DNA of 64,000 nt from an uncultured Candidatus Binatia bacterium (GTDB lineage: Bacteria > Desulfobacterota > Binatia > HRBIN30), in NCBI GenBank assembly GCA_964371655.1, contig CAYJOD010000007.1, positions 81,145 through 145,144 of the forward strand. The letters are read 5' to 3'. A model generated the notes under the pieces. It was not told the origin of the DNA. It made no database searches and worked only from the letters and a program-made list of their open reading frames with translations. Shown here piece by piece: positions 1,129 to 60,569 of the stretch (positions within the stretch are counted from its first letter, which is position 1; each line of letters begins with the position of its first letter). Both the position numbers and the translations under genes were made by a program.

Positions 1129-1510
1129 ACCCTCACCCTAACCCTCTCCCAGGGAGATCGTCGATTTTCTCCGGCACGGCGGTTGCGCGAGTTTCATGCC
1201 GCCTGGTAGGGCCGGCTGTGCCGGCCTTATTCTCCACCCGACCGGCCGGTACAACCGGCCCTACGCGACTTTATCGACAGTCTCAAGGGGGAGAGGGGAG
1301 CTTTACCTTCTCCCTCTCCCTTTGAGACTGTCGATAAATCCGAATGGAAAACAGGAAACGGGAAACCGGAAACCGGACACTGGGCTATGCTTACGCAGAA
1401 TGGCCGGTTTTTGATTTTCGGTCTCCGGTTTCCTGTTCTCCATTCTCCGAGCGACGGCCTGTTGCAGAGAAAATCGACAGTCTCCTTTGGGAGAGGGACG
1501 GGGTGAGGGC
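1129..1510 (+). repeat. Composite F1 palindromic MITE-like element (half element plus full element with 105-bp core hairpin GAATGGAAAACAGGAAACGGGAAACCGG...CCGGTTTCCTGTTCTCCATTC)
   Basis: The same architecture recurs at 8024-8253, 24002-24185, 31540-31736 and 57586-57790. Ends are ccctcaccc...gagactgtcgat / atcgacagtctc...gggtgaggg. Core hairpin 1342-1446. Confidence 0.8.
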
Positions 1511-1564
1511 GACGGCGCACGCACACGTGCCTCATGGTCTTCGGTGAACTTTCAACTCAGCACT

Positions 1565-2095
1565 CTACTCGCCCAAGACCGCCAGGCGCTTATCGAGCTC
1601 TTCCCTGGGCAGGGTAGCCGGGTAGCGCCAGATCGCATCCATGAGCAAACGCAACTCCTCGAAGCGCGGGCTGAGGGGGTCAGCCGCGCACAGCGGGCGG
1701 GCCTGATCGCGCCATAGCTCCGCCTCGACGAGACGCGTCAGCAAGTCCGCCGCCAGCCCGCCTTGCGGGTCGCGCTCGTGCCAGTGTCCCTTACCTGTCC
1801 GCAGCGCGGCTTCCATCTTGGCGATCGCCGCTGCACATGACTCGGCTTTGTACGAAGCCAACGCCGCCAGGGCTTTCTGACGTTCGCGGCGCTCGTCCTC
1901 TTCCTCACGCTGCTCGGCATCGTCACTGTCGGGCTGCTCTGGTTTGGCGGCGAGCTCGTGCTCCGCCTTGGCGGCGATCGGTTGCGGCTTGGGCTCGGGG
2001 GCACACGAGCTCGTGCAGCCGAGCATACCGCCGGCGAGAAGCGCGCCGAACAACGGCATGGCAAGGAGGTGGATTCGCATCTGCGGACTGTTCAT
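1565..2095 (-). CDS. Hypothetical lipoprotein (signal peptide with lipobox LLAGGMLGC, acidic/coiled-coil region)
   Basis: 176-aa ORF with an N-terminal signal peptide and Cys lipobox. No recognisable catalytic domain. Confidence 0.5.
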   Translation of the reverse strand: MNSPQMRIHLLAMPLFGALLAGGMLGCTSSCAPEPKPQPIAAKAEHELAAKPEQPDSDDAEQREEEDERRERQKALAALASYKAESCAAAIAKMEAALRTGKGHWHERDPQGGLAADLLTRLVEAELWRDQARPLCAADPLSPRFEELRLLMDAIWRYPATLPREELDKRLAVLGE

Positions 2096-2187
2096 ACACG
2101 TTTCGGGTCACGATCCAAGCGGGCGCGAATGCGTGGGGACCACACTCATCCACGCTGCCCCCGGAGCTAGAAGAGCGCGGACAATCC

Positions 2188-2321
2188 CACGAATCACCGC
2201 TCCCTAACGGTCGCGGCTCAGGTCGATATCCTCCGGTTTTTTGCCAGGTCAGAGCCGCGCGCGTCAGCAAGCGGTTAGCGCGTGAATGCTCCCGTAGACG
2301 CACGACGGGCCGTGCATCTAC
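2188..2321 (+). repeat. F3 conserved ~135-bp element (cacGAATCACCGCTCCCTAACGGTCGCGGCTCAGGTCGA...CAGAGCCGCGCGCGTAAGCAAGCGGT...TGCATCTAC)
   Basis: Near-identical copies at 13500-13632 (+) and 26250-26395 (-). Partial copies at 20441-20510 (-) and 4627-4675 (-). Confidence 0.8.
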
Positions 2322-2390
2322 ATTCTCCAACCGATCCACCGTCGGACCGTCGACCTAGCCGCCGGCGCTGTGCCCTCGCGCCGGTTCGCT

Positions 2391-3206
2391 TCAAATCAAC
2401 AAGCCACCGCCGACACCGATCTCATAAGCCATCGACAGGCCGAGACCGAGGCTGACCAGCGCCGCCATGGCGCGCACCGTGACGTGCACGCGGCCGAAGC
2501 GATCAGGAGTGAAGTGAAGAGGCAGGGCGAGCAAGACACTCATACCCATCATGCCGCCGATCGAGCCCACTCCGAACGCCGCAACGTAGGCGAGTCCGAG
2601 CCGCGGCGACGGAATCGTCGACAACACCAGGAGCATCAACGCGGCGCTGCCGGCGAGGCCATGGACGATGCCGATGAGAAGCGGCCGCGTGCTGAATCCC
2701 AACCCGTGATGCGTGTGGGTGGCAGGCTCGGGGGATCCGTCGTGCACATGCGGATGCAGATGCGCATGCCCGCCATGCTGGTGCCGGTGCAGGTGCAAAC
2801 GCGCCCCGCGCCCGATCTTCCACAACGCGTTGCCGCCGAGCCCGATCAGCATCAGCGCCACGACGAGCTCGAGCCCCAACTGGGTGCGCGCGCTGATCTC
2901 GACGTGCAGGACCATCACGACAACCGCCGCTACGCCCAGCGCCAGCGTGTGCCCGATGCCCCAGGCGGCGCCGACCAGCGACGAGCTGAACACGCTCTTG
3001 CGCGCGCCGACGATCGTCCACACCGCGGCCAAATGATCCGCGTCGAGGGCGTGCTTCAACCCGAAGACGAGGCCGGCGCCGAGAATGGATAGGGCCGGCA
3101 CCCACGATGTAGCGAAGCTGTCGCGACCGAGGCTGGCGAGCACAGCGCCCAACACGGTGTTGCCGGGTTCAATTGCGACGACGAGCCCGGGCACGATGCC
3201 ATTCAT
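2391..3206 (-). CDS. Nickel/cobalt transporter, NicO/RcnA (HoxN/UreH-like) family
   Basis: Polytopic membrane protein with the HALDADH signature and a His-rich loop HLHRHQHGGHAHLHPHVHD typical of RcnA/NicO. Confidence 0.8.
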   Translation of the reverse strand: MNGIVPGLVVAIEPGNTVLGAVLASLGRDSFATSWVPALSILGAGLVFGLKHALDADHLAAVWTIVGARKSVFSSSLVGAAWGIGHTLALGVAAVVVMVLHVEISARTQLGLELVVALMLIGLGGNALWKIGRGARLHLHRHQHGGHAHLHPHVHDGSPEPATHTHHGLGFSTRPLLIGIVHGLAGSAALMLLVLSTIPSPRLGLAYVAAFGVGSIGGMMGMSVLLALPLHFTPDRFGRVHVTVRAMAALVSLGLGLSMAYEIGVGGGLLI

Positions 3207-3377
3207 GCTTGGTCCTCTACATCAATCCGTGTCGCTCGCGCTACCTGTCGCACCGACAAAGCGGGAGCACGCTTGTCCTGAACCGCGTCGAAGGGCTCTC
3301 GCGCGCCAAAGGCACGGCTGGTTACGGGTACAGGGTCGGGTTGATTCCGAACGCAGCTTGCTCCGTTCGGAATCACG

Positions 3378-3752: not shown

Positions 3753-3756
3753 GTCC

Positions 3757-4032
3757 TCAGGAAGGCTCCTTTTCCCAGTGGAGCTTGAACCACTCCCAAA
3801 TATCAGGGTTGGCCCGCCCCGCATAATTTTGAACGGAAAGACAGAGCCCTGCCGTCGACGACTCACCGCTGCGTATTCCGATTGATTCAGCTAGATCGCG
3901 GATTGCTCCATCGTAATGGACCAACCATGCATTTTCGGCCAATTTGTAGCGATTCGTCGCCTCAATTTTCTCTTCGAGATTCGCGGCGACCTTCGCTGGA
4001 TCACGCAATGCGATTACTGTGAAGACCGGCAT
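3757..4032 (-). CDS. Hypothetical small soluble protein (low-GC island gene 1)
   Basis: Start MPVFTVIALRD is preceded by GAGGA, by a TATAAT about 17 nt upstream, and by a hairpin gccggcattccgcatcct/aggatgccggc spanning the start region. Sequence is AT-richer than neighbours. Confidence 0.45.
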   Translation of the reverse strand: MPVFTVIALRDPAKVAANLEEKIEATNRYKLAENAWLVHYDGAIRDLAESIGIRSGESSTAGLCLSVQNYAGRANPDIWEWFKLHWEKEPS

Positions 4033-4552: not shown

Positions 4553-4879
4553 CCCGCATCTCGTATCTCGCTGCCCAGCGACGAGCCGACCTCACAAACG
4601 CCGCCACCGGCGTTTGTCGGCGCAGAGCCGCGACCGTAAGCGAGCGGTGATTCGTGGGATTCCCGCGCCCGACTGGTGCCCCTGTATCAGAACCTCCGCA
4701 ATGATCTCGGCCCCTCTCTGGCCCGATCCGAAGATCATTCTCGCGCCAAGACGCAAAGCCGCAAAGGAGAGAACCACACCAATAGCTATTTGAATCTCGC
4801 TCGGATGGGATTCACTTCGCACTCCAACTCAACCCGAAAACATCAGTTGGACTGCCAGGTCGCGATCAGTCTGGTAGTG

Positions 4880-5035
4880 CGCGCCCTTCGAGACGCGACC
4901 TGAGAACCCTTCGATACGCTTCGCTACTCAGGAGGCCGCTCCTCAGGGCGAACGGGAAAAATTGGTGCAACTGTCGTTACACCGTTCGCCCTGAGGAGGC
5001 GCCCGCTTTTGGCGCCGTCTCGAAGGGCGCATCAG
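4880..5035 (+). repeat. F5 element: TIR gcgcccttcgagacg...cgtctcgaagggcgc enclosing the cccttcgatacgc motif and an inner hairpin ctcaggaggccgctcctcagggcgaacgg/ccgttcgccctgaggaggcgcc
   Basis: Related cccttcgatacgccgccaag / cgtatcgaaggg motifs at 23955-23999, 26085-26145, 26670-26760, 34548-34600 and 46455-46530. Confidence 0.7.
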
Positions 5036-5214
5036 TGACCGCAGACGGAAAGTGAGGTCTTCGGGCTCAACGTCTTGTCCTTTGCGCCTTGGCGCCTTTG
5101 CGCGAGCCCTTCTTTCTTCGGATCAGGCCGCACCCTCCCCGCTGGAACACGCCCCTGGGGCGGCGTTCCGTCTGCGCTTGCAACACGCCGGGTTCTGAGA
5201 TCAGAAGGTTTGCC

Positions 5215-7365: not shown

Positions 7366-7375
7366 CCAGATTTTT

Positions 7376-7459: not shown

Positions 7460-7478
7460 AAACTTTGTCCGATCGAGG

Positions 7479-7895: not shown

Positions 7896-8023
7896 GTCGA
7901 TCTCCCTTCTCGTATCTCGTATCTCGTTTCAGAAGAACCGGTAAGCCCCACGTCGATGCTAGGGTCCTGAGTCGTAAGTTCGCGACGAAAATGGAGCCTC
8001 GATAATTGCCATCGCCCTCACCC

Positions 8024-8253
8024 CGGCCCTCTCCCAGAGGGAGAAAGGCAAGCTCCCCTCTCCCTCTGGAGATTTTCGATAAATGCGAATGGAAAACAGG
8101 AAACGGGAAACCGGGGACCGAAAACTGGGCAATGCTCATGCAGAAAGGCCGGTTTTCCATTTTCGGTTTCCGGTTTCCTGTTTTTCATTCTCCGATCGAC
8201 GGCCGGTCGCGGAGATAATCGACAGTCTCTCTGGGAGAGGGTTAGGGTGAGGG
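8024..8253 (+). repeat. F1 palindromic element copy (core hairpin 8097-8190)
   Basis: ccctcaccccggccctctcccagagggaga...gaatggaaaacaggaaacgggaaaccgg...ccggtttcctgtttttcattc...gggagagggttagggtgaggg. Confidence 0.8.
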
Positions 8254-8372
8254 CTCTTCGTTCAGACGACCCGGTAGTTCTTCGGCGAACATCTGACTCA
8301 GGACACTAGCGCATCATGGCGGCCCAACGATGTCGCCTTGCCTTGAGCGTCGAATCCTGCAACCACGCCGCG

Positions 8373-9506
8373 ATGGCACTCGAGCGTATCGCGGTGGGAG
8401 TTGCGTACGCTGCGTTGTTCTTCGGTGCCGGGGTGTGGGCTCCGTATTTCCCTCTCTATCTGGCGCATCTGGGTTTCAGCGGTGGACAGATCGGCGCCAT
8501 CATCGGCACCGCACCGCTGCTGCGCTGGAGCAGCGCGATCGGGTGGGGATACCTCGCCGATCGTTGGCGGCGGCGGCACTTGCTGCTGGTGCTGGCCTCA
8601 TTCACCGGATGCTTGTTCTTTGTTCCCTTGCTGTTCGTGCGCAGCTTTGTCGCGATCGCGGCCGTGCTCACCTGCATCAACCTGTTTCACGGCGCCATGC
8701 TGCCGATGCTCGACGCCACGGTGATGGACCATCTGCAGCGCCTGGGTGGCGACTACGGCCGCCTGCGTTTGTGGGGATCCCTCGGCTTCATCGCCGGGGC
8801 GCTGGTGAGTGCACCGATCATTCAGCTGTCTTCGCCGGCAGCCGTGCCGGCGCTGCTGCTGGCGCCGGCGTTCTTCCTGGTACCCGCCCTCTATTATCTG
8901 CCGCACGAGCAGCTCGGCAGCTCCGGACGCTTTCGCGCGCCATGGAAGCTTCTCAACCCAGCGCTGTCGGCGTTTCTGGCGACGGCCTTCCTACTCCAGA
9001 TCAGCTGCGGCGCTTGGGGCGGCTTCTTCGCGGTGCACAGCGCGCGGCTGGGTTTCTCCGACGCCATCCCCGGAATCACCTGGGGGCTAGCGGTAATCAT
9101 CGAGGTCGGGGTGCTGTTTTGGGGAAGGCAGATCGTCGAACGTTTCGATGCCGCCGGGATGATCGTGTTCACGCTGATCGTCACCGTCGGGCGCTGGGCC
9201 CTCACTGCGGTCGCAACCGACGAGGTCGCCGTCGTGGCGCTCCAGCTCGCCCACTCGATTACGTTCGCCGTCTTCCACCTCGCCGCCTTGTTGCTGCTGA
9301 CCCGTTTGGTTCCGCCCCAAAACAGCACCAGCGGACAATCCCTCTACGGCATGGTCAGCTTCGGATTCGGCGGCAGCGCCGGCATCGCCCTCGCCGGCGC
9401 GCTCATCGACCGCATCGGTAGCAGCGCCCTATTCGGCGTCGAAGCGTGCATCGCCGCGCTCGCCCTGTTGCCGGCCTGGCAGCTGCGCCACCACCTGCGG
9501 CGCTGA
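8373..9506 (+). CDS. MFS transporter (MFS_1-like, 12 TM)
   Basis: Hydrophobic 12-helix pattern with GxLaDRxGRR-like motifs. ATG at 8373 (MALERIAVG). Confidence 0.75.
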   Translation: MALERIAVGVAYAALFFGAGVWAPYFPLYLAHLGFSGGQIGAIIGTAPLLRWSSAIGWGYLADRWRRRHLLLVLASFTGCLFFVPLLFVRSFVAIAAVLTCINLFHGAMLPMLDATVMDHLQRLGGDYGRLRLWGSLGFIAGALVSAPIIQLSSPAAVPALLLAPAFFLVPALYYLPHEQLGSSGRFRAPWKLLNPALSAFLATAFLLQISCGAWGGFFAVHSARLGFSDAIPGITWGLAVIIEVGVLFWGRQIVERFDAAGMIVFTLIVTVGRWALTAVATDEVAVVALQLAHSITFAVFHLAALLLLTRLVPPQNSTSGQSLYGMVSFGFGGSAGIALAGALIDRIGSSALFGVEACIAALALLPAWQLRHHLRR

Positions 9507-9587
9507 GCGATCGCTTCTTCCTCTCGGAGGAAGTGGAAACTTCGCCGGACCGGCGCAATCCGCCACCTCTCGAGAATCATCGGATCA

Positions 9588-9660
9588 TGGTGGGGCAGGC
9601 CTCCGTGCCTGCCCGGCTGCGCAGGCAGGGACACCTGCGCCACCAGAACTGGGCAGCCTT
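9588..9660 (+). repeat. F8 element GGTGGGGCAGGCCTCCGTGCCTGCCCGGCTGCGCAGGCAGGGACACCTGCGCCACCAG
   Basis: Copies at 46333-46410 (-) and 54028-54095 (+). Confidence 0.7.
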
Positions 9661-9681
9661 CACAGCCTAACGAGATACGAT

Positions 9682-10098
9682 TCACGAACGACGAGACACG
9701 CTCGCAAGCGGCTGCAAACGCGGCGGATCGCGCCGGAAACGCCGCTCGTCGAAATGCCCGTGCCGCAGGCCTTCCACGTCTTCACGCACGCGTGCACGCA
9801 AGCCCTCGAGGTTGATCGCCCCGGCCTGGGGTGCAAACGCCTCGACCTTGCTTAGCGCCTTCTCGAGCATGGCCGCGGCCGCGGAAAGTGATCCCTGGCT
9901 GACCTTATGATACCCGACCGCAATCTGAATCAGGCCGACGAAGAGATCCCAGAGGTCGTCCGGAACGTCGTCGAGGTGATCCTCGATCGCTTCGTGCGCT
10001 TCGAAGTAACGCCCGGCGTTGAATTGCTGCGCCGCTGCGATGACGGCGGCGCGTAGACGGTCGGGCGCGGCGGCCGCCGGCGCAGGGTCTTGCCTCAC
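9682..10098 (-). CDS. DUF309 domain protein
   Basis: FNAGRYFEAHEAIEDHLDD...W motif. GTG start overlaps the upstream stop as GTGA. Confidence 0.6.
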   Translation of the reverse strand: MRQDPAPAAAAPDRLRAAVIAAAQQFNAGRYFEAHEAIEDHLDDVPDDLWDLFVGLIQIAVGYHKVSQGSLSAAAAMLEKALSKVEAFAPQAGAINLEGLRARVREDVEGLRHGHFDERRFRRDPPRLQPLASVSRRS

Positions 10099-10538
10099 TT
10101 GCGCCTGCCGCCCGTCCTCGTGGTCGTCTTGGCGGTCGTCTTCGGAGGTTTCGCTGGCGCGGAGTTGCTGGCAGCGGCGACGGCAGCGAGCTGTGCGGCT
10201 ACCTTCTTCGGCGCCGTCATGAGGTAACTGTCGGTCAGCAAGTCGCGCACCTCGTCCCAGTCGACATCGACATCGAGACGCAGACCGATCCAGCCCTTGT
10301 GTCCGACATAGGGTGGTACGAAGAAGCGTTCCGGTGCGGCCCCGACCAGGATCTCCTGCACCCCTCCCGGCGCCTTGCACCACATAGCGAAGCGCGCGTC
10401 GTCGTCGCGGTCATCGACCCACATTGCGAACATCTTGTCGCGCACGCGGAAGGTCGGCGTTCCCCACGCTTCCTTCTCGACACTCTCCGGGAACGACAGG
10501 CACGCGGCTCGGAAGCTGTCGAGCACGTTATTGTTCAT
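10095..10538 (-). CDS. MmcQ/YjbR family DNA-binding protein
   Basis: FPESVEKEAWGTPTFRVRDKMFAMW...GWIGLRLD pattern of the YjbR family. Confidence 0.7.
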   Translation of the reverse strand: MNNNVLDSFRAACLSFPESVEKEAWGTPTFRVRDKMFAMWVDDRDDDARFAMWCKAPGGVQEILVGAAPERFFVPPYVGHKGWIGLRLDVDVDWDEVRDLLTDSYLMTAPKKVAAQLAAVAAASNSAPAKPPKTTAKTTTRTGGRRK

Positions 10539-10625
10539 CGAGGTTCCTCATGAATCACGCCTGCCCGCCACGCTCTGGTGAGGCCGCCTCAAGATCCACC
10601 AAGGAGGGCGCGCCGCCGCGCGCCC

Positions 10626-11015
10626 CTACTTAGAAGATTTGAGATCGAGGAGGACGTAGCCCGGAAAATCGGCGAGTCGAAGCGCGTCGCGTAGCAGCGG
10701 CGGCAGATGCGGGTATGCCGCCGCGGTGCCGATGATGCGCGGGTTGCGGACGTGGTGGCGGCGTCCGAGCCGCTGGATTTCGCCGCCCTTGGCGGCGACG
10801 AGATTGCGCGCCCAATCGACGTCGCGCCCGTACGTCATCGGGATCACAAACCCCTTCGTCGTCGGGAACGCGACCACCGGGCTTTGGTAGTTGCGCTGGC
10901 TCTTGCGGCCGACGTGGTGCACGATCGCCAGCGGCGGAAGCAGCCAGGCGAAGGTTCCCATGATCGGGTTGGTGAAGACACGATTGACTCGGCGCATGAA
11001 GTTGGGGAGGTGCAT
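10626..11015 (-). CDS. Deazaflavin (F420)-dependent nitroreductase / PPOX-class DUF385 family protein
   Basis: MHLPNFMRRVNRVFTNPIMG...QRNYQSPVVAFPTTKGFVI...GRDVDWARNL is a typical DUF385 N-terminus. The 94 codons upstream in the track ORF look non-coding. Confidence 0.65.
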   Translation of the reverse strand: MHLPNFMRRVNRVFTNPIMGTFAWLLPPLAIVHHVGRKSQRNYQSPVVAFPTTKGFVIPMTYGRDVDWARNLVAAKGGEIQRLGRRHHVRNPRIIGTAAAYPHLPPLLRDALRLADFPGYVLLDLKSSK

Positions 11016-13341: not shown

Positions 13342-13499
13342 TGAGGCTCCGTTCTACTCCATCCGGACCCGCCGCGCTCACAGCGAGCGGCGTGATTACA
13401 TCGGAGAACCCCGCGCAGCGCAATCGCCGTCCGCGCCCGGTCGTCGGGTCGGTTGCAGATCAACGGTACGCCGGCGCGATGAGCACGCGGGAGAGAGCC

Positions 13500-13632
13500 C
13501 TCGAATCACCGCTCCCTAACGGTCGCGGCTCCGGTCGAGGTCCGCCGGTTTTCGGCATGTCAGAGCCGCGCGCGTAAGCAAGCGGTCAGCAGGTGGATGC
13601 TTCCCTCGAGGCACGGCATGCCGTCCATCTCC
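13500..13632 (+). repeat. F3 element copy in the divergent hflX / methyltransferase promoter region
   Basis: About 85% identical to 2188-2321 over roughly 135 bp. Confidence 0.8.
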
Positions 13633-13721
13633 AGTCTCAAACCCACATTTTTGCTCGGGTGCACTCGCGCCCGTGGCGTGAGGCGAGGAACGCCGGTACA
13701 TCTGTGCGACAAGGAGAAGAA

Positions 13722-20108: not shown

Positions 20109-20727
20109 GCGATCTCTCTACTCTGGCGGCGATGCGCCCAACAATTCGGAGAGCGCTGTATTTCGCAAAGGGAGAGTCCTGTAGGCGTATGCTGGATTGC
20201 TTCCAGGTTCGTTCGACGGTTGGAACAGTGGACACGAACCTAGCCTGCCCACGCTGCGTCGCTCTTGCCGAAGCTGTCATGCCGAAGCCCGCGGCTGCTC
20301 ATGACGGATGCGGTCATCCGCAAATCCTCGTTTAGGGATGGTTCCCTTCCGTGTCGCGCCATCGACGATCGGAAGGCCCTGCGCCGAATGGGCTGACAAG
20401 GGCAACAGCACGGAAGGAGAGAGTGAGGAACGAATCTCCACGCCCGACCGCATCGCTGCGGATATCGACCAGAGCCGCGACCGTGAGGGAGCAGTGATTC
20501 ATGGGTGTCCTCCAGTCGACTGTTGACTGTCGCCCCCACGACGATCTTGGCCCTGTCCCGAACCCTCCCCGTTGCTGGAATCGGCAATCAGGGAGGCGAG
20601 CTGATCAGCGAGCCAACATGGTTTCGCTAGGGTAGATTTCCGACCGCCCTACAGATTCCGCCGTATTGCTCGCGATGGCCCTGCTCCCGTACGGTGGCGG
20701 CCGATTGTCTGCTCGAGGGCCAACACC

Positions 20728-23262: not shown

Positions 23263-23912
23263 CACGGGCGCGGGTATTGATCGCCGATGATCATGAGGTC
23301 GTACGGCGCGGGATTCGATCTCTCCTCGAAAACCAACCCAGCTGGGAGGTCTGCGGCGAAGCCGTCACCGGGCGGGAAGCGGTCGAGAAAACGATACAGC
23401 TGACACCGGATGTCGTCGTTCTGGATGTCGGCATGCCGGAGCTCAACGGCCTCGAAGCCGCCCGGCAGATCCTGAAAGTGCTCCCGCACACGGAGATCCT
23501 GATTCTCACGATGCATGATTCGACACAGCTCATTCACGAGGTGCTCGCCGCCGGGGCACGCGGCTACGTGCTCAAGTCCGATGCCGGGCGCGATTTAGTC
23601 GCCGCGGTCGATGCCCTGTGCCGGCACAAGCCATTCTTTGCACCCAGCATTTCCGGGGTCGTGCTGGACGGGTTCCGGAAGAACGCGAACGGGGCGAGCG
23701 CGCCCACCAGCGCCGATCCGCTGACAGCGCGCGAGCGTGAGATCCTGCAGCTCTTGGCCGAAGGCAAGAGCAACAAGGACGTCGCCACGATTCTGGGGAT
23801 CAGCGTCAAGACCGCCGAGACGCATCGCACCAACGTCATGCGCAAGCTCGAGCTGCACTCGGTGAGCGAGCTCGTGCGCTACGCGATCCGCAACAGCATC
23901 ATCGAGGCCTGA
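23259..23912 (+). CDS. NarL/FixJ-family response regulator (REC + LuxR HTH)
   Basis: VLIADDHEVVRRGIR...DVGMPELNG... and LTAREREILQLLAEGKSNKDVA HTH. ATGA overlap with the kinase stop. Confidence 0.9.
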   Translation: MTRARVLIADDHEVVRRGIRSLLENQPSWEVCGEAVTGREAVEKTIQLTPDVVVLDVGMPELNGLEAARQILKVLPHTEILILTMHDSTQLIHEVLAAGARGYVLKSDAGRDLVAAVDALCRHKPFFAPSISGVVLDGFRKNANGASAPTSADPLTAREREILQLLAEGKSNKDVATILGISVKTAETHRTNVMRKLELHSVSELVRYAIRNSIIEA

Positions 23913-24001
23913 CCCGGTTCACCGGGTCAGGCCGGCTTTGCCCGCCAATTGAGATGGAGCACCCTTCGATACGCCGCCAAGAGAAGGCGGCTACACCGCG
24001 C

Positions 24002-24304
24002 GAGAGGGGAGTGTCGATTTTCTCCGCAACAGCCCGCCGCTCGGAGAATGGAAAACAGGAAACCGGAAACCGAAAATGGAAAACCGGCCTTTCTGCGTGA
24101 GTATTGCCCAGTTTCCGGTGCCCGGTTTTCCATTTCCTGTTTTCCATTCGGCTTTATCGACAGTCTCAGAGGGCGGGGGTGAGGGATCTACTTTCCCACG
24201 CGGAGCTCCGCCACACGTCCGCCGCAGGGCTCCGGAGTGCGGGCCCATCCCCGCCGCCTCGGTTCCTCACCCTAACCCGCAAGTAATGCGGGCGAGGGAG
24301 CTGG
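24002..24304 (-). repeat. F1 element (24002-24185, inverted orientation) fused to F2 element (24176-24304)
   Basis: gagaggggagtgtcgattttctcc...ggagaatggaaaacagg...ccattcggctttatcgacagtctcagagggcgggggtgagggatc...cctcaccctaacccgcaagtaatgcgggcgagggagctgg. Confidence 0.8.
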
Positions 24305-24361
24305 CTTTGCAAACCTCAACCGCAGCGGTTTGCGTCGCGACGTCCACGCACCGCAGCGCAG

Positions 24362-25981: not shown

Positions 25982-26249
25982 GAATTTCCCCTTCCTCGCT
26001 TGCTTTGGCTGCATCCTATCACGGTCACCTGCGATCGGAACCTTCATTTCATGCAACCGTCTAGCCGTATGAACTTGAAGGCTGCATGCACCCGAGGAGC
26101 AGCCCCTCGATACGCCGCCAAGAAAGGGCGGCTACTCGGGGCGAGCGGTTTGGTTTGTATGCCCAGCAGCTCTTGTCCGTTCGTCCCGAGAAGACCCCTC
26201 CTGAGCCACTAGCGAATCGTTCTTACCAACATGTTGAGAGAACGCGACA

Positions 26250-26395
26250 GCGTGGATGCATGGCCTGCCGTGCATCTACGGAAACACTCACCCGCTGACC
26301 GCTTGCTTACGCGCGCGGCTCTGCCATGGCGAAAACCTGCGGACCTCGACCTGAGCCGCGACCGTCAGGGAGCGGTGATTCGTGGGATCTCCCAC
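26250..26395 (-). repeat. F3 element copy (inverted orientation)
   Basis: The reverse complement aligns along its full length with 2188-2321 and 13500-13632. Confidence 0.8.
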
Positions 26396-26450
26396 ACCTG
26401 TATTACGAAATCTTGTCGGCGTGCGAGGATTGTCGAGTCGTGGCGCAAAG

Positions 26451-26627
26451 CCAGCTCCCCTAGCCCGCAATACTTGCGGCAGAGGGTTAGGGTGAGGGAA
26501 CCGAGGCGACGGGGATGGGCCCGCACTCCGGAGCCCTGCGGCGGACGTGTGGTGGAGCTCCGCGTCGGGAAAGCGGATCCCTCACCCCCGCCCTCTCCCG
26601 CAGTGATGCGGGAGAGGGGGTGCTTCC
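26451..26627 (-). repeat. F2 element copy with terminal tctcccgca(a/g)t(a/g)(c/a)t(t/g)gcgg(c/g)agaggg hairpins
   Basis: Shares ccgcagggctccggagtgcgggcccatcc and ccctcaccctaaccc segments with 24176-24304, 57780-57882 and 60378-60569. Confidence 0.75.
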
Positions 26628-26836
26628 AAACACCGGCGTGCGTTGCAGGCGTCAGCTCGCGCTAGGTAGGCGCCTTCTCGGGCGCCGTATCGAAGGGCTC
26701 CCAGGGGCCGTATCGAGGGGCCGCTGTCGCCCGGTTTCTTCCCGACAGAGGGCGCCCCCGGCGCTGACGGAGGACTCTATTGCTCCTTCCTTACAAGACA
26801 GATAAAGTAAGCTATCTAAGACTAGGGAGGAGAGCG

Positions 26837-29291: not shown

Positions 29292-29827
29292 GACTTATCC
29301 TCACACCGCAAATTGTGAGCCTCGGAAGCCAAATAGGGAAGAAACTTTCGTTAAGGTGGCGCCGCCCAGGGCCACGGCAAAGTCGTTGGCGGAGGGCGGG
29401 CGGCGACGAACGACGCGCAGCATGGGCACTCCAATCACCGGCGCAGGCTGAAGTCCTGCGCCTACAGCCCGCGTTTGCGGACTGTTCTGAAATGTAGGCG
29501 CAGGACGGCTTTGCACTTCGATTCGAGTCGGAGGGACGTGTAGGGTGGGCTTCGCCCACGCCGCCAGCAGTTTGCCAGTGAAATGATCCAACGCGTGGGC
29601 AGAGCCCACCCTACGAGAGGCCAAAGTGAGAATAAAAGTGCAAAGCCGCGCAGGACTTCAGCCTGCGCCGCGATGTTGATCCCTGCGCGCGGGGCTCCGT
29701 CAGCGACTTCGCCGTGGCCCTGTGGCGTCGCCGGCACCGGCTGGCGTTACCTTCGGAGCGCGCGCAAGACTTACGCCGGATCGGCTCCTACGTCCCCATG
29801 AATCCGCGTAAACAGGAGGAGGACACG

Positions 29828-31539: not shown

Positions 31540-31736
31540 CCAGCTCCCCTGAGACTGTCGATAGATCCGAATGGAAAACAGGAAACGGAAAACCGGGAAC
31601 CGGAAACTGGGCAATGCTCACGCAGAAAGGCGGGTTTTCCATTCTCGGTTTCCGGTTTCCTGTTTTCCATTCTCCGAGCGACGGCCTGTTGCGGAGAAAA
31701 TCGACACTCCCCTCTGGGAGCGGGTTAGGGTGAGGG
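31540..31736 (+). repeat. F1 palindromic element copy
   Basis: gagactgtcgatagatccgaatggaaaacaggaaacggaaaaccgggaaccgg...ttccggtttcctgttttccattctccgagcgacggcctgttgcggagaaaatcgacactcccctctgggagcgggttagggtgaggg. Confidence 0.8.
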
Positions 31737-31795
31737 CTCTTCGCTTCAGGCGGCCCGGCATGTGTTCGGCGAACATCTGACTCAGGACAAACTAG

Positions 31796-34500: not shown

Positions 34501-34762
34501 CGCAGGACGGGAGAATGAGCAGCTTATTGAGCCTCGTGAAATATGTTGACAGCGAACCGCCCTTCGATACGCCGCCAAGCACCAAGCTCTAGCAGGGAGG
34601 GGCATTGGGGAAGGTGGATCGTCATGGAGATCTGGCGGCGTAGGAACAACCCACGTAAGTCCGCAGTCGATTTCAAGAGAGCTCTGTGAGTCACTCGCTC
34701 ATAAGACACCACGATCGAGTTACGTGAGATACGTTCGTCCCCAAGTGCCTTGCCGCTTGCGT

Positions 34763-45149: not shown

Positions 45150-45400
45150 GGTAGGGTGCGGGGGTTCTGGGGTTCTGGGGTGCGGGAGTGCGGGAGTGCG
45201 GGGGTTCATCGAGCAAGGTTCAGCGGTTGTAGCGGCACCCTCAAGACTCATGAGATCAGATCGCAGCGCGGGTTGACGCCCGCGTTCGAATGAAGACAAC
45301 CGACTCAGATACACTGAGAAGGCACCCCCGAACCCCAGCACCTCAGCACCCTATGAACCCCCGCACCCCCGCACCCCAGCACCCCCGAACCCTTCCACGT
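45150..45400 (+). repeat. Inverted pair of tandem heptamer-like arrays (gggtgcgggggttctggggttctggggtgcgggagtgcgggagtgcggggg ... cccccgcacccccgcaccccagcacccccgaaccc)
   Basis: Sits between mutL and miaA. The track ORF 45290.. translates the right arm as PRTPAPQHP repeats. Confidence 0.7.
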
Positions 45401-46303: not shown

Positions 46304-46332
46304 GACCTCCGAGGCTGTGAAGAGTTTTCTGG

Positions 46333-46410
46333 TCTGGTGGCGCAGGCGTCTCTGCCTGCGCAGCCGGGCAGGCACGGAGGCCTGCCCCACCAGTGCCTGG
46401 TTCTTACAGA
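46333..46410 (-). repeat. F8 element copy
   Basis: Reverse complement of the 9588-9660 motif. Confidence 0.65.
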
Positions 46411-46914: not shown

Positions 46915-47480
46915 AGCTAACCCCAATGCCGGGCGGTTACGAAGTTTCCGCCCCGAAGGGGCAAGAATTCGAAAGCCCAGGGCAACGCCCTGGGAATACC
47001 GTTGTGAACCGATAGAAGCCCTGAAGGGGCGAGATTCGCGCGGCCACTCTATGAGCTTCGCCCTTTCAAGGCTTGCGACTCAGCCCGAATAACTCAGCTG
47101 GAACCTCGGATGGACGCTGATGAACGCCGATAAGACCAGCCAGAAACCGGACATGCAGGGAATCCGGCGTTGATGCCCCTTCGGGGGCTGGCTTTCGTTA
47201 ATGATTTTGACGGGGCGCTGAATCGCTGCGACTGTCCACTGGATTGGACAGGGCAGTCCAGCATTCTGGACACACGACGGATCTTGCGGTGAACCGCGGG
47301 CTGGCTGGACCAGCTTTGCCCAACAATTCGGTTCCGGGTTCGGAGTTCCGCCTTTAGGCGGCCTCAGCGGAATGCCAGCGTTCCAATTGGCACCGCCTAA
47401 AGGCGGAACTCCAAACGGTCCGCGTGTTGCTTGCACACGGGCCCGACGAATTGTTGGGCAAAGCCGGCGGGACCAGACCG
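46915..47480 (+). other. About 560-bp non-coding region packed with GC-rich stem-loops (gccccgaaggggc; gcccagggcaacgccctgggaa; gccccttcgggggc; a 22-bp perfect IR ggagttccgcctttaggcgg/ccgcctaaaggcggaactcc; a 17-bp IR ttgcccaacaattcg/cgaattgttgggcaa)
   Basis: No ORF with coding character except a possible 78-aa minus-strand ORF at its right edge. Confidence 0.5.
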
Positions 47481-49019: not shown

Positions 49020-49150
49020 GATGTTTTCGCCCGATGTCATCCCGAGCGGAGTGAGGGATCTGACAGCGTTTGCATTTACGCGGCTGCAGAAGATTCCTCG
49101 CCGCGTAAGTGCGATGGCTCGGAATGACAATCAAACTGATCCACTACCGG
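49020..49150 (+). repeat. F7 element (tttgatgttttcgcccgatgtcatcccgagcggagtgagggatc ... gaagattcctcgccgcgtaagtgcgatggctcggaatgaca)
   Basis: A second copy at 61440-61600 also sits immediately after a gene stop. Confidence 0.7.
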
Positions 49151-50304: not shown

Positions 50305-50861
50305 TCCGCGAAGGCCACGGCGAACGATGGACGTCGGCGACAACCTCGACGTGTTTCGGCGCCTTGAACGCGGCGAGGCTCACAGATTGCGTGCGAGCTC
50401 CCTGTGGATCAAGTCGTCATCCGCGGATGAGCGGCCCTCGCTGAGCTCCTGAAGTCTGAGGCCCGAAGCCTGAAGCCCACGCCGAATCCCATCGACCGCG
50501 TTGACTTCCTCTCTCTTTCACGCGATATGCGGCGACGCTGCTGGTGTCAAAGGGAAGTCGGTGTAATGCCGACACGGCCCCCGCCACTGTAACTGGAACG
50601 AACGCGGCAGATTCGCCACTGTCCGAAGGGATGGGAAGGCGCCGCAAGTAGGTCGCCGGAAGTCAGGAAACCTGACCCAACAGCACGTTCGAAGTCCTCC
50701 GGGGTGTGAGGATGAGATTGCTGTAGGCCGTCTCCTTCATACCCGGAAGCGCTTAGGCGCGACCGGGTTTCTTGTTTGCGGCAGCAACCTCCCATTCTCG
50801 CTCAGCGGCCCGGCGTGTGTCCGCGTTTCGCATCGGAGCGCCAGAAACGGGAGGTTTCATC

Positions 50862-52292: not shown

Positions 52293-52408
52293 GATGAGCC
52301 ACGTCATGTGGAGTGCGGCGGCCCTTCGACGCGGCAGAGGACAAGGTCGCCGCACTGGGGTTGGACGGTAGAATATGCCACCGGGTTTGAATCTTGGCAT
52401 CGGAGCTC

Positions 52409-52960
52409 CAGGCCTTGGTGGTATAGGCTTCCAGCCACATCATTACACACAACTCGGCATGCACGCGTATCTGGATTCTGGACCCCGAAGGGGTCGGAGG
52501 AATTAGCCGGTGGTTGAGCGAAGCGATACCACCGGATCATACGTGGCCCCCGTATTTCGCACCCCGGTAGGGGTGCAAGCACATCGTGCTCAGCGGGGCG
52601 AGAAGGCTTGCGACAGCTGGCACCCCTACCGGGGTGCACAATCTCCGGCCCGGAAGCCGGTGGTATCGGCCGGTGGCCTCAACCCACCGGCTAATCGCTG
52701 TCATCCCTCCGGGATGCTCCGGGAAGCGCCAAGGCCGGGCTGCGAGTTGTGTGTAACGATGTGGCTTCCAGCCTGTACCGCCAAGGCTCTTCCGGCCTCC
52801 AAATCTTCTCAAGAGACTTGCGTCCAATCATGGGTTGATCGGATCCACCGCTTCGATGGTTGATCCCACCCTTCGACGAAGAGCCATTTGCTAATGCTGG
52901 CTACGACCTGCTCTATAGAAAATGCCCGATGGTACAGGCTGGAAGCCTATACCACCGGGC
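52409..52960 (+). repeat. Cluster of F6 palindromic elements (GGTGGTATAGGCTTCCAGCCTGTACCACC and CATCATTACACACA variants) plus long hairpins (gcaccccggtaggggtgc...gcacccctaccggggtgc)
   Basis: Copies at 52409-52466, 52749-52795 and 52928-52960. More copies at 58981-59035, 59166-59216 and 63926-63990. Confidence 0.75.
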
Positions 52961-52977
52961 CGGCAGTCGCCGACCAA

Positions 52978-54000
52978 ATGTCCCAACCCCAGAGCCGGAA
53001 CAAGCTTCCGCACTCCAAACGTGGACTAGTTGCCGTCGTGGCACTGCTCCTGTGGCCGGCGCTTGCGGTGTGGGCGGCGAGTGATCCGTTCGCGGACGAA
53101 GTTGTCGCCTTCATCGCGGGCGCCCACGCCGGCTTCGGCGCCGACCACTTTCCCAACGTCGTCCTCGGTCCACCCGTCGCCGCCGGCGACCTGCAGGGTT
53201 CCACCGATGTGCTGTCGCTCGGCGACGGCGGCAGCATCGTCCTGCGTTTCGACGAGCCGGGGATCTGCGATCGGCCGGGCCCTGACTTCATCATCTTCGA
53301 AAATGCTTTTCATGTCGGCAGCGCCGACGGTCCGGTGTTCGTCGAGGTCGGTATCGTCGCCGTCAGTGAAGATGGAATCCACTTCGTCGAATTCCCCTAC
53401 GACGCGACGAGCTTCGCCGGCCTCGCCGGCAGGACGCCGGTCTACAGCAATCCCGACAACGGCATCGATCCAACCGACCCGGCCGTTGCCGGTGGCGACG
53501 CCTTCGATCTGGCGACGGTCGGATTGGCATCGGTGCGCTACGTGCGCATCACCGACCCGGGCAACGCCATCCCCGACTCCGGCAGCCGCATCGTGCCCGG
53601 CAACTCCAACGGCTTCGATCTCGACGCGATCGCGGCAATCCACACTTGCCAGGGTGACGCTCCAACCGCGACCCCCTCGCCCACCCCGACACCGACGCCG
53701 GCGTTGTCGCCACCACAAACGATGCAGCCCAGCGCCAGTCCGACCCTCCAATTCCCGACGACCACTCCGACACCGACGCTCACCGTCACCCACACGGTTA
53801 CCAGCGCGCCCCTAGCCACGCACACGCCCCGGCCCGGCGACGTCGACGGAGACGGTAAGCTCGATGACCATGACCTCTCCGCAGTGATCCGTGCGATCTT
53901 CGCAGCCCCGGTTTCGACCAGCGCCGATGTCAACCGCGATAGCCTGGTCTCTGCCGCGGATTGCTCGTGGTTGGTCATTGCCGTGGGAGGGGTGGAATGA
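52978..54000 (+). CDS. Secreted protein with Pro/Thr-rich linker and C-terminal dockerin/EF-hand-like DVDGDGKLDDHD...DVNRDSLVSAAD repeats
   Basis: Signal peptide LVAVVALLLWPALAVWA. Start is inside the F6 repeat region. Confidence 0.55.
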   Translation: MSQPQSRNKLPHSKRGLVAVVALLLWPALAVWAASDPFADEVVAFIAGAHAGFGADHFPNVVLGPPVAAGDLQGSTDVLSLGDGGSIVLRFDEPGICDRPGPDFIIFENAFHVGSADGPVFVEVGIVAVSEDGIHFVEFPYDATSFAGLAGRTPVYSNPDNGIDPTDPAVAGGDAFDLATVGLASVRYVRITDPGNAIPDSGSRIVPGNSNGFDLDAIAAIHTCQGDAPTATPSPTPTPTPALSPPQTMQPSASPTLQFPTTTPTPTLTVTHTVTSAPLATHTPRPGDVDGDGKLDDHDLSAVIRAIFAAPVSTSADVNRDSLVSAADCSWLVIAVGGVE

Positions 54001-54027: not shown

Positions 54028-54095
54028 CTCCAGAAATGGTGGGGCAGGCCTCCGTGCCTGCCGGGCCGCGCCCGCAGGCACGCCTGCGCCCCCCA
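54028..54095 (+). repeat. F8 element copy
   Basis: gtggggcaggcctccgtgcctgccgggccgcgcccgcaggcacgcctgcgcc. Confidence 0.65.
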
Positions 54096-54220
54096 AAATA
54101 GCGCCAGACGGTTTTAATAGTCCGGGAGTCATTGGAAGTAATTGCTCGTATACCAACACAGTCAGGGCGCGCCGCCGCGCGCCCCTACGCCCTCGGGTCC
54201 TTCTCGTAGGGGCGCATGGC

Positions 54221-57513: not shown

Positions 57514-57585
57514 GGAGTGTGGCACGGCAGAGCCCCTTGCGGGCTGCGCTCGCAGCCGCAGCTGCGCCGGTGTTGGGAAGCGCGC

Positions 57586-57882
57586 CCTCTCCCGCAACAC
57601 CTGCGGGAGAGGAGACTGTCGATGTTCTCCGCAACAGGCCGCCACTCGGAGAACGGAAAATCAGAAACCGGAAACCGAAAATGGAAAACCGGCCTTTCTG
57701 CCTGAGCATTGCCCAGTTTCCGGTTTCCTGTTTTTTGTTTTCGGTTTTGCATTCGCGTTTATCGACACCCTCAGAGGGTGGGGGTGAGGGATCCAATTCA
57801 TCGCAACCTTTGCTGCGCCCATCCGCGCCGCGTCGGTTCCCTCACCCTAACCCCCCACAAGTAATGCGGGCGGGAGCTGGCC
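57586..57882 (-). repeat. F1 element (57586-57790, inverted) fused to F2 element (57780-57882), inside the uptake gene cluster
   Basis: Same core as 1342-1446 and same F2 tail as 24176-24304. Confidence 0.8.
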
Positions 57883-58028
57883 TGGGAGCCCCAACTTGGA
57901 AATCGTCCCGCGGCGACAAGATTCTTGGGCTGGCCTGGGAGCGCCGGCATCTTGCCGGCGCGGAGAACGGATTCGCGCCGCTTAGAAGGCGGCGCTCCCA
58001 GGCAGGGCAAGGCACCGGGCATTTTGGG

Positions 58029-58898: not shown

Positions 58899-58980
58899 TC
58901 CGGGGTGAGCCCTATTGCCGGAAACGTCGCCGCTTTGCAGGGACTCGGGGTAGGCCTACGGGCGGCGCACTGGAGCTTGG

Positions 58981-59216
58981 TCCTTTGGCCGGCGATCGCC
59001 GGCCCGGTGGTATAGGCTTCCAGCCTGTACCACCGGGCACTTGCTCTAGCGCGGGTGACAGCGCGCATCCGCAAGAAACTGTTCGCTGCTGGCGAGCATC
59101 AACCAGCGAATCGGCAGATCCGATCCATACACCAATGTGCTCGACTGTCTCGACAAGGTTGGAGGCCGGAACAGCCTTGGTGGTACAGGCTGGAAGCCTA
59201 TACCACCAAGGCCTGG
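58981..59216 (+). repeat. Two F6 palindromes between the SBP and permease genes
   Basis: cggtggtataggcttccagcctgtaccaccgggc and ttggtggtacaggctggaagcctataccaccaagg. Confidence 0.75.
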
Positions 59217-59304
59217 AGCTTCGACGCTCAGGTTCAACCCGGGTGCCACATCCAAAGGGCAAGACTGCGAAATGCCGCCTTCCATATGGCACAGGGAATC
59301 GGCC

Positions 59305-60318
59305 ATGTCGTACTTGACCAAAGCCCACTTCGCGCGAGTCATGCTGGGGCTGGCGGCGCTCCTGCTCGCCACGATCGTCGCCGCGTGCCTGATCGGCAGC
59401 GTGCACATCGATCTTTGGCGCGCCCTGCAACGCGGCCTGCCGCAAAACGTCGACGCCGTCATTCTCTTCGAGACGCGGCTGCCACGAGTGTTGCTGGCGG
59501 CGATTGTCGGCGCGGCGCTGGCCGCCGCCGGTGCGGCGCTGCAAGGTCTATTGCGCAACCCGCTTGCCGAGCCTCATCTCATCGGTATCTCCGGCGGCGC
59601 GGCGCTGGGCGCGGTCGCGGCGGTGATTGTCGGCGGGCGCCAGATCCTGGCAGAGGCGGCGCTGCTGCCGCTGGCGGCATCCGCGGGGGCGCTGCTGTCG
59701 ATGGCCATCGTCTACCGTCTCGCGCTCGTGCATGGACGCCTGCAGCCCTACGTCCTGCTGCTTGCCGGTGTCGTCTACAATGCCTTCACCGGGGCGCTGA
59801 TCATGTGTGTCAACGCGATCGCCGATCTTTACCAAGCCCAAGGTATCCTCTTCTGGCTCATGGGTAACTTGGGCACGCACAGCTACACCCTGGTCGCCGC
59901 CATCAGCGTCTACGTACTCGCCGGCAGCGCCTGGTTACTGTCCCACGCGCGTGCCCTCAACGTTCTCAGTCTCGGGGAAGAAGGCGCCGCACAGCTCGGC
60001 GTCAACGTCGATCGCGCCCGGCGCGCCGTGTTCTTCGGCTCGTCGCTGCTGGTCGGCGCGGTGGTCTCGGTCAGCGGCATGATCGGGTTCGTCGGGCTCA
60101 TCGTCCCGCACGTATTGCGGCTGCTCTTCGGCGCCGACCACCGTCTATTGATTCCGGCTTCGTTTCTTGCCGGTGCGATCTTCCTGATTTGGGCGGACAC
60201 GATCGCGCGCACGGTCCTCGGTGTCGTCGAGGTTCCGGTCGGCGTCGTCACCGCGCTGTGTGGCGGGCCGTTCTTCGTCTACCTGCTCAAGCGCGAAGGG
60301 ACACGGATCGTCGGATGA
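59305..60318 (+). CDS. FecCD/BtuC-family ABC permease
   Basis: Ten TM helices with a FecCD signature region. Confidence 0.85.
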   Translation: MSYLTKAHFARVMLGLAALLLATIVAACLIGSVHIDLWRALQRGLPQNVDAVILFETRLPRVLLAAIVGAALAAAGAALQGLLRNPLAEPHLIGISGGAALGAVAAVIVGGRQILAEAALLPLAASAGALLSMAIVYRLALVHGRLQPYVLLLAGVVYNAFTGALIMCVNAIADLYQAQGILFWLMGNLGTHSYTLVAAISVYVLAGSAWLLSHARALNVLSLGEEGAAQLGVNVDRARRAVFFGSSLLVGAVVSVSGMIGFVGLIVPHVLRLLFGADHRLLIPASFLAGAIFLIWADTIARTVLGVVEVPVGVVTALCGGPFFVYLLKREGTRIVG

Positions 60319-60377
60319 GCACGAACACCTCATCGCGCGCTACACCCGCAACCGAAGCAGCGCCGACGGTTGGAAGC

Positions 60378-60569
60378 ACTCCCTCTCCCGCAATACTTGC
60401 GGGAGAGGGTAGGGGTGAGGGATCCGACTTCAATGTTTGCTGCGCACGTCCGCCGCAGGGCTCCGTCCTCCGCAGGGCTCCGGAGGACGGGTCCGGAGTG
60501 TACCCATCCGACGGCCCTCACCCTAACCCTCTCCCGCGCCGGAATTGGCGCGGGCGAGGGGAGCTGGCC
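60378..60569 (-). repeat. F2 element copy between the permease and ATPase genes
   Basis: ctctcccgcaatacttgcgggagagggtaggggtgagggatcc...ccctcaccctaaccctctcccgcgccggaattggcgcgggcgaggggagctggcc. Confidence 0.8.

Follow-up and report, generated by a model that had tools for sequence, protein, structure and literature searches.

The short repeat that was named BoxC first, PIT element next and TM_ECO last was described in Escherichia coli in the 1990s (Holder et al. 2015, NAR, PMC4666352, citing Bergler 1992 and Bachellier 1999 as earlier BoxC sources). It forms an intrastrand triplex in vitro, occurs with 23 copies in E. coli K-12 (4.6 Mb) and in more than 260 genomes, is always intergenic, is frequently arranged in inverted pairs and is tied to local genome instability; no association of the motif with transposases or mobile elements was found by Holder et al. 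(PMC4666352). Here, two types of dispersed palindromic repeats, F1 and F2, are analysed in a 64,000-nt stretch of DNA from an uncultured Candidatus Binatia bacterium (contig CAYJOD010000007.1, positions 81,145 to 145,144; hereafter the window), both of which are closely connected with this motif. The sources listed for the BoxC/triplex motif reportedly also include Hoyne and Maher (2000). We consider it likely that the window contains three nested repeat layers, namely strongly amplified BoxC units, a MITE (miniature inverted-repeat transposable element), F1, that would have inserted into BoxC, and a composite element, F2, that would be built from BoxC.

In the first-pass annotation, CCCTCACCC(TAACCC) termini shared by F1 and F2 were taken to define a single element family. 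By their sequence, these supposed termini, CCCTCACCC(TAA)CCCTCTCCC and GGGAGAGGG(TTA)GGGTGAGGG, are the known BoxC/PIT/TM_ECO motif and no element ends; the motif is the target of F1 and a component of F2, and the definition of one family had to be given up. A BoxC unit consists of a pyrimidine block CCCTC(T/G)CCC (CCCTCTCCC), a loop of 3-5 nt, GGGAGAGGG, a 3-nt linker (TTA or CCG), and GGGTGAGGG. Each block of the window units agrees with Table 1 of PMC4666352, both linker types included, and as the three blocks are essentially identical to those tested in that study, a purine-motif intrastrand triplex is predicted for the window units as well. Further features in common with the reported motif are the intergenic location of every unit, the lack of strand bias, the occurrence in inverted pairs, and the association with local rearrangement. 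Some of the hairpins in the window are lengthened (CCCTCTCCCGCAnnnnnTGCGGGAGAGGG). Nine intact units and approximately four interrupted or degenerate ones were counted in 64 kb, compared to 10 units in 2.18 Mb of loci of other Binatia and metagenome relatives and to the 23 copies of E. coli K-12, which corresponds to a roughly 30-fold enrichment in this genome. In contrast to BoxC elsewhere, the units are in addition embedded in larger composites (modules U, core2, tail, and V, see below). Head-to-head doublets were observed at 1130-1509 and 8015-8253, and tail-to-tail doublets are represented by the F2 copies.

BLAST searches with full units against plasmids matched hundreds of records (Klebsiella, Enterobacter, Citrobacter, Aeromonas, Azospirillum, Variovorax, Rhizobium, and others). 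These matches are confined to the CCCTCACCC...CCCTCTCCC...GGGAGAGGG part, i.e., to the BoxC blocks, and both the F1 body and the F2 core remained unmatched in plasmids. Examples are a doublet CCCTCACCCCGGCCCTCTCCCTAAGGGAGAGAG-spacer-CCCCTCTCCCTGTGGGAGAGGTTAGGGTGAGGG on an Enterobacter plasmid and CCCTCTCCCTCTGGGAGAGGGTTAGGGTGAGGG...CCCTCACCCCAGCCCTCTCCCAGAGGGAGAGGG in Variovorax. In E. coli, a BoxC doublet is located between wzc and wcaA, and the motif was matched in 4149 of 5426 complete genomes as well as in many plasmids. Such doublets were also observed at distant Binatia loci. A unit in the 8-kb extension before the window start (L097, 16730-16770) reads CCATCTCCCGC...GCGGGAGATGG instead of CCCTCTCCC...GGGAGAGGG, with both arms altered and the hairpin preserved.

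The strongest single evidence of mobility is given by a 262-nt F2 copy on the forward strand (60323-60584), which starts with GAACACCTCATC and comprises a U module, BoxC (60381-60421), core2, a second BoxC (60515-60556), and a tail ending in ...GCTGAGGTTTTCG. It is flanked by an exact 10-bp target duplication, GGATGAGCAC, at 60313-60322 and 60585-60594 (forward strand), and these are the sole two occurrences of this sequence in 64 kb. The left duplicate provides the TGA stop codon of a FecCD-family gene and the right duplicate the ATG start codon of an ABC ATPase gene. In all five contigs of relatives that were compared, both genes overlap by ATGA and no spacer is present, so that a textbook pair of empty and filled site is observed. 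These contigs represent four distinct relatives (L096, L092, L094, and L095; L093, from another sample, is a second contig with sequence identical to L092), with nucleotide identities to the window of 88-92% for L096 and 74-83% for L092, L093, L094, and L095. At least this F2 copy thus inserted as a whole between two genes with coupled translation, and owing to the 10-bp duplication neither the stop codon upstream nor the start codon downstream was lost. An insertion with target duplication has previously not been reported for BoxC. The ends of this copy (GAACACCTCATC / GCTGAGGTTTTC) form an imperfect inverted repeat with 10 of 12 matching positions, and the element folds end to end (z = -5.8). 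The left F2 junction is shared by a 99.3%-identical variant strain (L187). Another relative (L186, 88% identity) carries a different repeat directly after the same FecCD-family stop codon. This short repeat, CTTGGCGGCGTATCGAAGGG(N)GCTC, is located at 1077-1106 of L186 and at 23956-23981, 26097-26122, 26676-26700, 34554-34579, and 5011-5040 of the window; its position in L186 indicates that the target junction of F2 was struck independently by another repeat.

The layout of F2 is given by a U module of approximately 45 nt, BoxC, a variable core of 50-110 nt (core2), an inverted BoxC, and a tail GAGCTGGCYTTGC, which by sequence comparison is a tail-to-tail BoxC doublet with added conserved sequence; F2-type ends are of the kind CGAAAACCTCAGC... 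Apart from the copy at 60323-60584, a stand-alone F2 is located on the reverse strand at 26409-26661 (U 26618-26661, BoxC 26579-26617, core2 26499-26578, BoxC 26458-26498, tail 26409-26457). Two further copies on the forward strand are interrupted by F1. Of the first, the remainder at 24168-24310 includes the purine blocks AGAGGGCGGGGGTGAGGG (to 24185), core2 (24186-24264), BoxC (24265-24298), and the tail GAGCTGGCTTTGC. The second spans 57539-57925, with U at 57539-57584, BoxC at 57585-57611 and 57773-57790, core2 at 57791-57838, BoxC at 57839-57875, and a tail to approximately 57925. In self-BLAST, 24168-24310 matches 26445-26596 with 90% identity (E 1e-50), and identities of 72-78% were obtained for 57817-57923 and 60334-60573.

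Five copies of F1 were recovered by repeat detection and self-BLAST. The presence of five F1 and four F2 copies was thereby confirmed, as was the alignability of the F1 copies (pairwise E 1e-44 to 1e-84) and their occurrence in both orientations (three on the forward, two on the reverse strand). Aligned on its inverted repeats, the F1 body has a length of 161 nt in all five copies without any indel. Copy 1 (1324-1484, forward strand) lies within a BoxC hairpin and is flanked by the direct repeat CTTT at 1320-1323 and 1485-1488, and copy 2 (8069-8229, forward) by TCTG at 8065-8068 and 8230-8233. For copy 3 (31551-31711, forward), which is enclosed by a BoxC left arm (31540-31550) and right part (31712-31736), the flanks CCCT/CTCT match at three of four positions. 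Copy 4 (24007-24167, reverse), located within the left BoxC of an F2, and copy 5 (57612-57772, reverse) are bounded by AGAG at 24003-24006 and 24168-24171 and at 57608-57611 and 57773-57776, respectively. In F1 orientation the flanks of copies 1-5 read CTTT/CTTT, TCTG/TCTG, CCCT/CTCT, CTCT/CTCT, and CTCT/CTCT, i.e., exact 4-bp direct repeats in four of five copies. The insertion points are CTCT-like tetranucleotides, which for copies 1-3 belong to the loop of BoxC and for copies 4 and 5 to its pyrimidine arm.

In silico deletion of the F1 body together with one 4-mer restores a canonical BoxC in all five cases. Excision of copy 2 leaves CCCTCTCCCTCTGGGAGAGGGTTAGGGTGAGGG, which is identical at 33 of 33 positions to a BoxC unit of Variovorax paradoxus (L183), and excision of copy 5 leaves CCCTCACCCCCACCCTCTCCCGCAGGTGTTGCGGGAGAGGG, an intact extended BoxC of the type that bounds the intact F2 copies. 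F1 thus seems to end in CCCTCACCC / GGGTGAGGG because it lands inside BoxC hairpins. The fused F1-F2 arrangements described in the first-pass annotation are real (24003-24310 and 57585-57925), and after excision of copies 4 and 5 both loci align in register with the uninterrupted stand-alone F2 copies. These fusions are insertions of F1 into an F2 that was already in place, in each case into its left BoxC.

The locus 1129-1510, formerly regarded as half an element plus a full one, is better described as one head-to-head BoxC doublet (1130-1509) that was struck twice, since F1x and F1 occupy its two hairpins. The order is CCCTCACCCTAACCCTCTCCCAGG, F1x, AAGGGGGAGAGGGG, spacer, CTCCCTCTCCCTTT, F1, CTTTGGGAGAGGGACGGGGTGAGGG. 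F1x (1154-1284, reverse strand) has the terminal inverted repeats of F1 and an unrelated interior of 95 nt with two inverted GTAG-type REP-like (repetitive extragenic palindromic) hairpins; its site is the loop of the doublet's left BoxC, between CAGG and AAGG (match at three of four positions). As expected if one transposase serves several MITE families, F1x and F1 have only their terminal repeats in common. A short coreless pair of F1-type ends is situated beside a BoxC in relative L092. Considering constant ends, variable interiors, flanking duplications of fixed length, and a preferred target, a MITE with a trans-acting transposase is indicated. F1 (161 nt) and F2 are considered new MITE-like families, the former with BoxC as its target and the latter composed of BoxC.

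The terminal inverted repeats of F1 comprise 12-15 nt with GAGACTGTCGAT / ATCGACAGTCTC ends, and the left and right ends read GAGACTGTCGATAAA and AAATCGACAGTCTC, respectively. The core is a 104-nt hairpin, each arm of which contains approximately five tandem GGAAA(A/C)C heptamers; a side hairpin TCCGAGCGACGGCCTGTTGCGGAGA precedes the right end, and loop and inner stem are the best-conserved parts. Pairwise ungapped identities of the bodies range from 82.6 to 94.4%, compared to 85-95% in the earlier estimate. The description of the core as a near-perfect 105-bp hairpin is to be divided: ungapped self-complementarity of the 105-nt core amounts to 60-73% and is not near-perfect, but the fold is very strong, with z = -9.3 (DNA) and z = -10.9 (RNA) for the unit 8015-8254, the 240 nt of which fold end to end. 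Exact-pattern scans of genome and metagenome contig collections for the conserved loop GGGCNATNCTNANGCAGAANGGCNGGTTTT yielded no matches. In 2.4 Mb of fetched loci, which include relatives and same-strain contigs, the F1 body was matched by BLAST and an nhmmer profile in same-strain contigs only. According to the searches made, F1 is thus restricted to this organism, where approximately 72 kb (the window and the 8-kb extension L097) contain five copies in addition to F1x and a degenerate F1x relative. A protein search with the peptide from one F1 open reading frame, the other frames lying outside that search, found no homologue; a coding gene was ruled out due to the long palindrome and this result. 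A clustered regularly interspaced short palindromic repeat (CRISPR) locus or tandem array was ruled out by the dispersed location of the copies.

An additional outer layer is given by V modules of approximately 50 nt. At the doublet 1130-1509, an inverted pair of these flanks is formed by V at 1081-1129 (reverse strand), which adjoins CTAG at 1077-1080, and its partner at 1510-1564, which adjoins CTAC. All three layers are observed in the unit 7963-8305, with V' at 7963-8014, BoxC at 8015-8048, a spacer, a BoxC left arm at 8055-8068, the F1 body, BoxC at 8230-8253, and V at 8254-8305; CTAG is found on both sides (7959-7962 and 8306-8309). A further V module (31737-31791, then CTAG at 31792-31795) lies beside the single BoxC unit 31540-31736. 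All five V copies end with ...GACTCAGGAC(N) followed by CTAG, in one case CTAC. The arrangement V-BoxC-spacer-BoxC-V, approximately 180 nt without F1, may itself represent a MITE-like unit with CTAG or TA as target.

Both elements resemble bacterial MITEs such as Correia/NEMIS, ERIC/IRU, RUP, and Nezha (PMC3184786, PMC10969869) in their small size (161 and 262 nt) and the lack of an open reading frame. Like these, they have terminal inverted repeats and target-site duplications, occur between genes in several diverged copies, and fold as a whole into hairpins. Different from the named families, no similarity to any searchable element was detected and F1 is confined to one repeat as target. Integration into intergenic palindromic repeats at or near the loop is likewise known for insertion sequences (IS), namely IS1397 and ISKpn1 in palindromic unit (PU) loops, the IS110-family members ISPpu9 and ISPpu10, and IS621 (Tobes & Pareja 2006, PMC1525189; PMC12288879). 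In contrast to these, F1 would be a non-autonomous MITE with a 4-bp duplication, and its target is BoxC and not REP/PU. The claim of novelty made in the first-pass annotation therefore concerns only a part of the elements: the F1 body and the F2 core match neither a searchable element nor an Rfam family, but the termini are BoxC.

In the scenario that we favour, BoxC is strongly amplified in the form of single units and inverted doublets, some of the latter with V flanks of approximately 50 nt bounded by CTAG. F1 lands on CTCT-like tetranucleotides of BoxC hairpins, in the loop or in the pyrimidine arm, and would be moved by a DDE-type transposase from another part of the genome that makes a 4-bp staggered cut, with IS5- or IS701-like insertion sequences as candidates. 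At least one F2 copy was inserted as a complete composite. The elements are presumably selfish passengers, which as a side effect would widen operon spacers, provide breakpoints for rearrangements, and interrupt assemblies. That they are non-coding, multi-copy, palindromic, non-autonomous mobile elements, as had been proposed, is backed by the empty site of F2 and by the terminal repeats and 4-bp flanking repeats of F1.

Alternating hairpin mosaics, conserved linkers, and doublets folding into long hairpins are also characteristic of bacterial interspersed mosaic elements (BIMEs) and of REP doublets forming hairpins (REPINs) with their REP-associated tyrosine transposases (RAYTs) (PMC2817692, PMC3116915, PMC3333891). 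Repeats of REP/BIME or REPIN type could have been spread by a RAYT (Y1 type), or by recombination, slippage, or gene conversion at hairpins, with direct repeats due to coincidence or microhomology. The BoxC units do alternate in orientation with conserved intervening sequences like BIMEs, classical GTAG-headed REP-like hairpins and doublets are present in the same genome, no transposase is linked to BoxC in the literature (PMC4666352), and the different repeat of L186 at the same FecCD/ABC junction suggests a hotspot. We nevertheless regard this explanation as unlikely, since elements moved by Y1 enzymes make no target duplication, whereas the duplication of F2 is exact over 10 bp and 4-bp repeats flank four to five of the five F1 copies. 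Neither a GTAG head, as is typical of RAYT-associated REPs, nor a missing target duplication is observed for BoxC, F1, and F2, and no RAYT gene was seen and no Y1_Tnp domain found among the window proteins.

Very stable predicted folds, the location of two copies within an operon, where they are hence transcribed, and the fact that V modules stop 7-12 nt upstream of the start codons of two genes with AGGA in between would fit structured RNAs, be they small RNA genes or hairpins that regulate in cis or stabilise mRNA, under selection for a part in neighbouring-gene expression. The Rfam check suggested earlier identified no relevant family for the elements: none passed the gathering threshold, and the E-value mode yielded only sub-threshold, generic miRNA-hairpin noise. 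Among the five F1 copies covariation was observed in 2 of 61 predicted pairs, with a covariation term of +0.72, and many of the pairs are disrupted. Moreover, the elements lie in sense, antisense, divergent, and convergent contexts relative to the transcription of their neighbours, no promoter-like site was detected in the scanned regions, two terminator-like matches (one per scan) do not exceed shuffled controls, and the elements are missing from close relatives at the same junctions. Due to the lack of an Rfam match, the little covariation, the mixed orientation, and the missing promoter and terminator signals, a selected RNA function of F1 or F2 is unsupported, and we hold it to be very improbable. 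The approximately five tandem GGAAA(A/C)C units per arm, along with the conservation of loop and inner stem, could alternatively indicate arrays of iteron-like or nucleoid-organising sites to which a DNA-binding protein of the host attaches, and the copies would be kept for this reason. With no known protein partner, copies only within another repeat, and an element limited to one lineage, there is hardly any likelihood in this explanation, and in a MITE, subterminal repeats to which the transposase binds would be expected just as much.

Several observations weigh against the reading of F1 and F2 as nested transposable elements. No transposase was found in the 64-kb window, and no longer element bounded by F1 terminal repeats in the window or the 2.4 Mb of fetched loci, with approximately 72 kb of this genome covered. 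An orthologous empty site for the F1 body was not obtained, as the alignment of the window spacer between the 422-aa gene and btuF with that of L092 is too scrambled. The 4-bp repeats of F1 lie in CT-rich sequence of low complexity, and the element boundaries were set after the repeats had been seen. F2 has weak inverted repeats at its ends and a duplication of uncertain length, exact over 10 bp and, if indels are allowed, perhaps reaching approximately 16 bp. Finally, the copies are 6-17% diverged and no presence/absence polymorphism was found among 14 same-strain contigs from other samples, so that current activity is not evident. The recent mobility claimed at first consequently holds in a relative sense only: "recent" means since the split from relatives with approximately 90% identity, and not ongoing.

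An assembly artefact was ruled out, as the repeats are identical base for base in independent same-strain assemblies of other samples. Many contigs of the same strain end within these repeats, at 1172, 1330, 1432, 23983, 23993, 24092, 26629, and 60519, which points to a multi-copy status, the usual effect of such repeats on short-read assemblers. Synteny with relative L102 (92% identity) ends at the margin of F1 copy 3 (31540). In relative L006/L007 (82% nucleotide identity), the response-regulator gene that in the window precedes the 24003 locus lies directly next to window 10629..9255. This arrangement implies an inversion of approximately 13 kb, the putative breakpoints of which (10602-10629 and 23912-24003) coincide with a GTAG-type GTAGGGGCGCGCGGCGGCGCGCCC repeat and with the F1/F2 locus, respectively.

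The window is chromosomal DNA with approximately 64% G+C and contains the housekeeping genes hflX, relA/spoT, pgi, mutL, and miaA. The best named relatives of its RelA/SpoT are metagenome-assembled genomes labelled Candidatus Binatia or "Deltaproteobacteria" with at most 80-82% amino acid identity, which places the uncultured organism in the Binatia (Binatota), and among the GTDB representatives searched the species remained unmatched. Metagenome contigs with exact window proteins were retrieved from the ENA analyses ERZ136929xx-ERZ136931xx by exact-protein look-ups. The only Rfam pass in the whole window is a cobalamin riboswitch at 50513-50694 (RF00174, 93.9 bits). It leads a transport operon encoding a 506-aa open reading frame without Pfam match, a dockerin-like protein, a TonB-dependent receptor, a 422-aa protein, a btuF-like, and a FecCD-family protein, and the ABC ATPase. 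Three spacers of this operon are occupied by differing repeat elements, among them F2 57539-57925 with the 422-aa gene on one side and the btuF-like gene on the other, and in different relatives different small palindromic elements fill different spacers of the same operon. According to the gene calls, F1 and F2 are always intergenic, as stated before, except for the called start of the btuF-like gene at 57864, which overlaps the F2 tail. This start was probably called too far upstream, since the orthologues are shorter (286-305 aa compared to 344 aa here).

Further repeats were observed in the window. GTAG-headed REP-like hairpins and inverted, REPIN-like doublets of at least three sequence types are located at 1208-1266, 29540-29615, 10602-10629, and 54163-54191, and also at 13310-13390 of L097 and 3245-3323 of L006; this suggests that a RAYT-type system may also be present in this genome. 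A dispersed family of approximately 150 nt with CCCACGAATCACCGCTCCCTAACGGTCGCGGCTC occurs with 83-92% identity in both orientations (2184-2332, 13484-13643, 26252-26400, 4625-4668, and 20456-20510), and a 19-nt piece of it is found in L096 directly after the ABC gene. The palindromic element GATGTCATTCCGAGC...GCTCGGAATGAC is situated at 49030-49129 and 61461-61569 of the window and at 478-583 of L096, where it fills the btuF/FecCD spacer; in the window this spacer contains another family (58967-59251), related to 52373-52995. An 80-nt palindrome (47338-47416) is shared with relatives (L007 1-72, L102 2743-2869), and the 128-kb contig NODE_857 of one sample stops at it. A GC-rich palindromic repeat TGGTGGGGCAGGCCTCCGTGCCTGCC... 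is present in three copies with 88-89% identity (9587-9668, 46312-46392, and 54036-54093). Lastly, a Band_7-domain gene contains a diverged direct repeat of approximately 184 nt (62011-62416, 73%), and a GC-rich inverted and tandem repeat with GCACCCC units is located between mutL and miaA (45170-45392).

In practical terms, the repeats fragment metagenome assemblies of this organism and mark synteny breakpoints (inversion end at 24003, break at 31540). The BoxC termini were already known; new are the F1 body, the F2 core, and a BoxC composite with insertion and target duplication. F1 extends the phenomenon of IS insertion into REP sequences to a non-autonomous element and to another class of repeats. 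BoxC/PIT/TM is among the most conserved short bacterial repeats; the reasons for its conservation across phyla have been unexplained for approximately 30 years, and an explanation of its spread has never been given. The window shows a composite with BoxC units that is recognisable as an insertion by its clean empty site and its target duplication, which provides a handle on this spread. Tentatively, and with considerable doubt on our side, one may speculate that BoxC units serve as structural modules of transposable F2-type composites with duplications of approximately 10 bp and as a dedicated landing pad of the F1 MITE. If true, there would be transposases that recognise a triplex-prone hairpin, and this genome would offer the first system for a direct study of how BoxC spreads.

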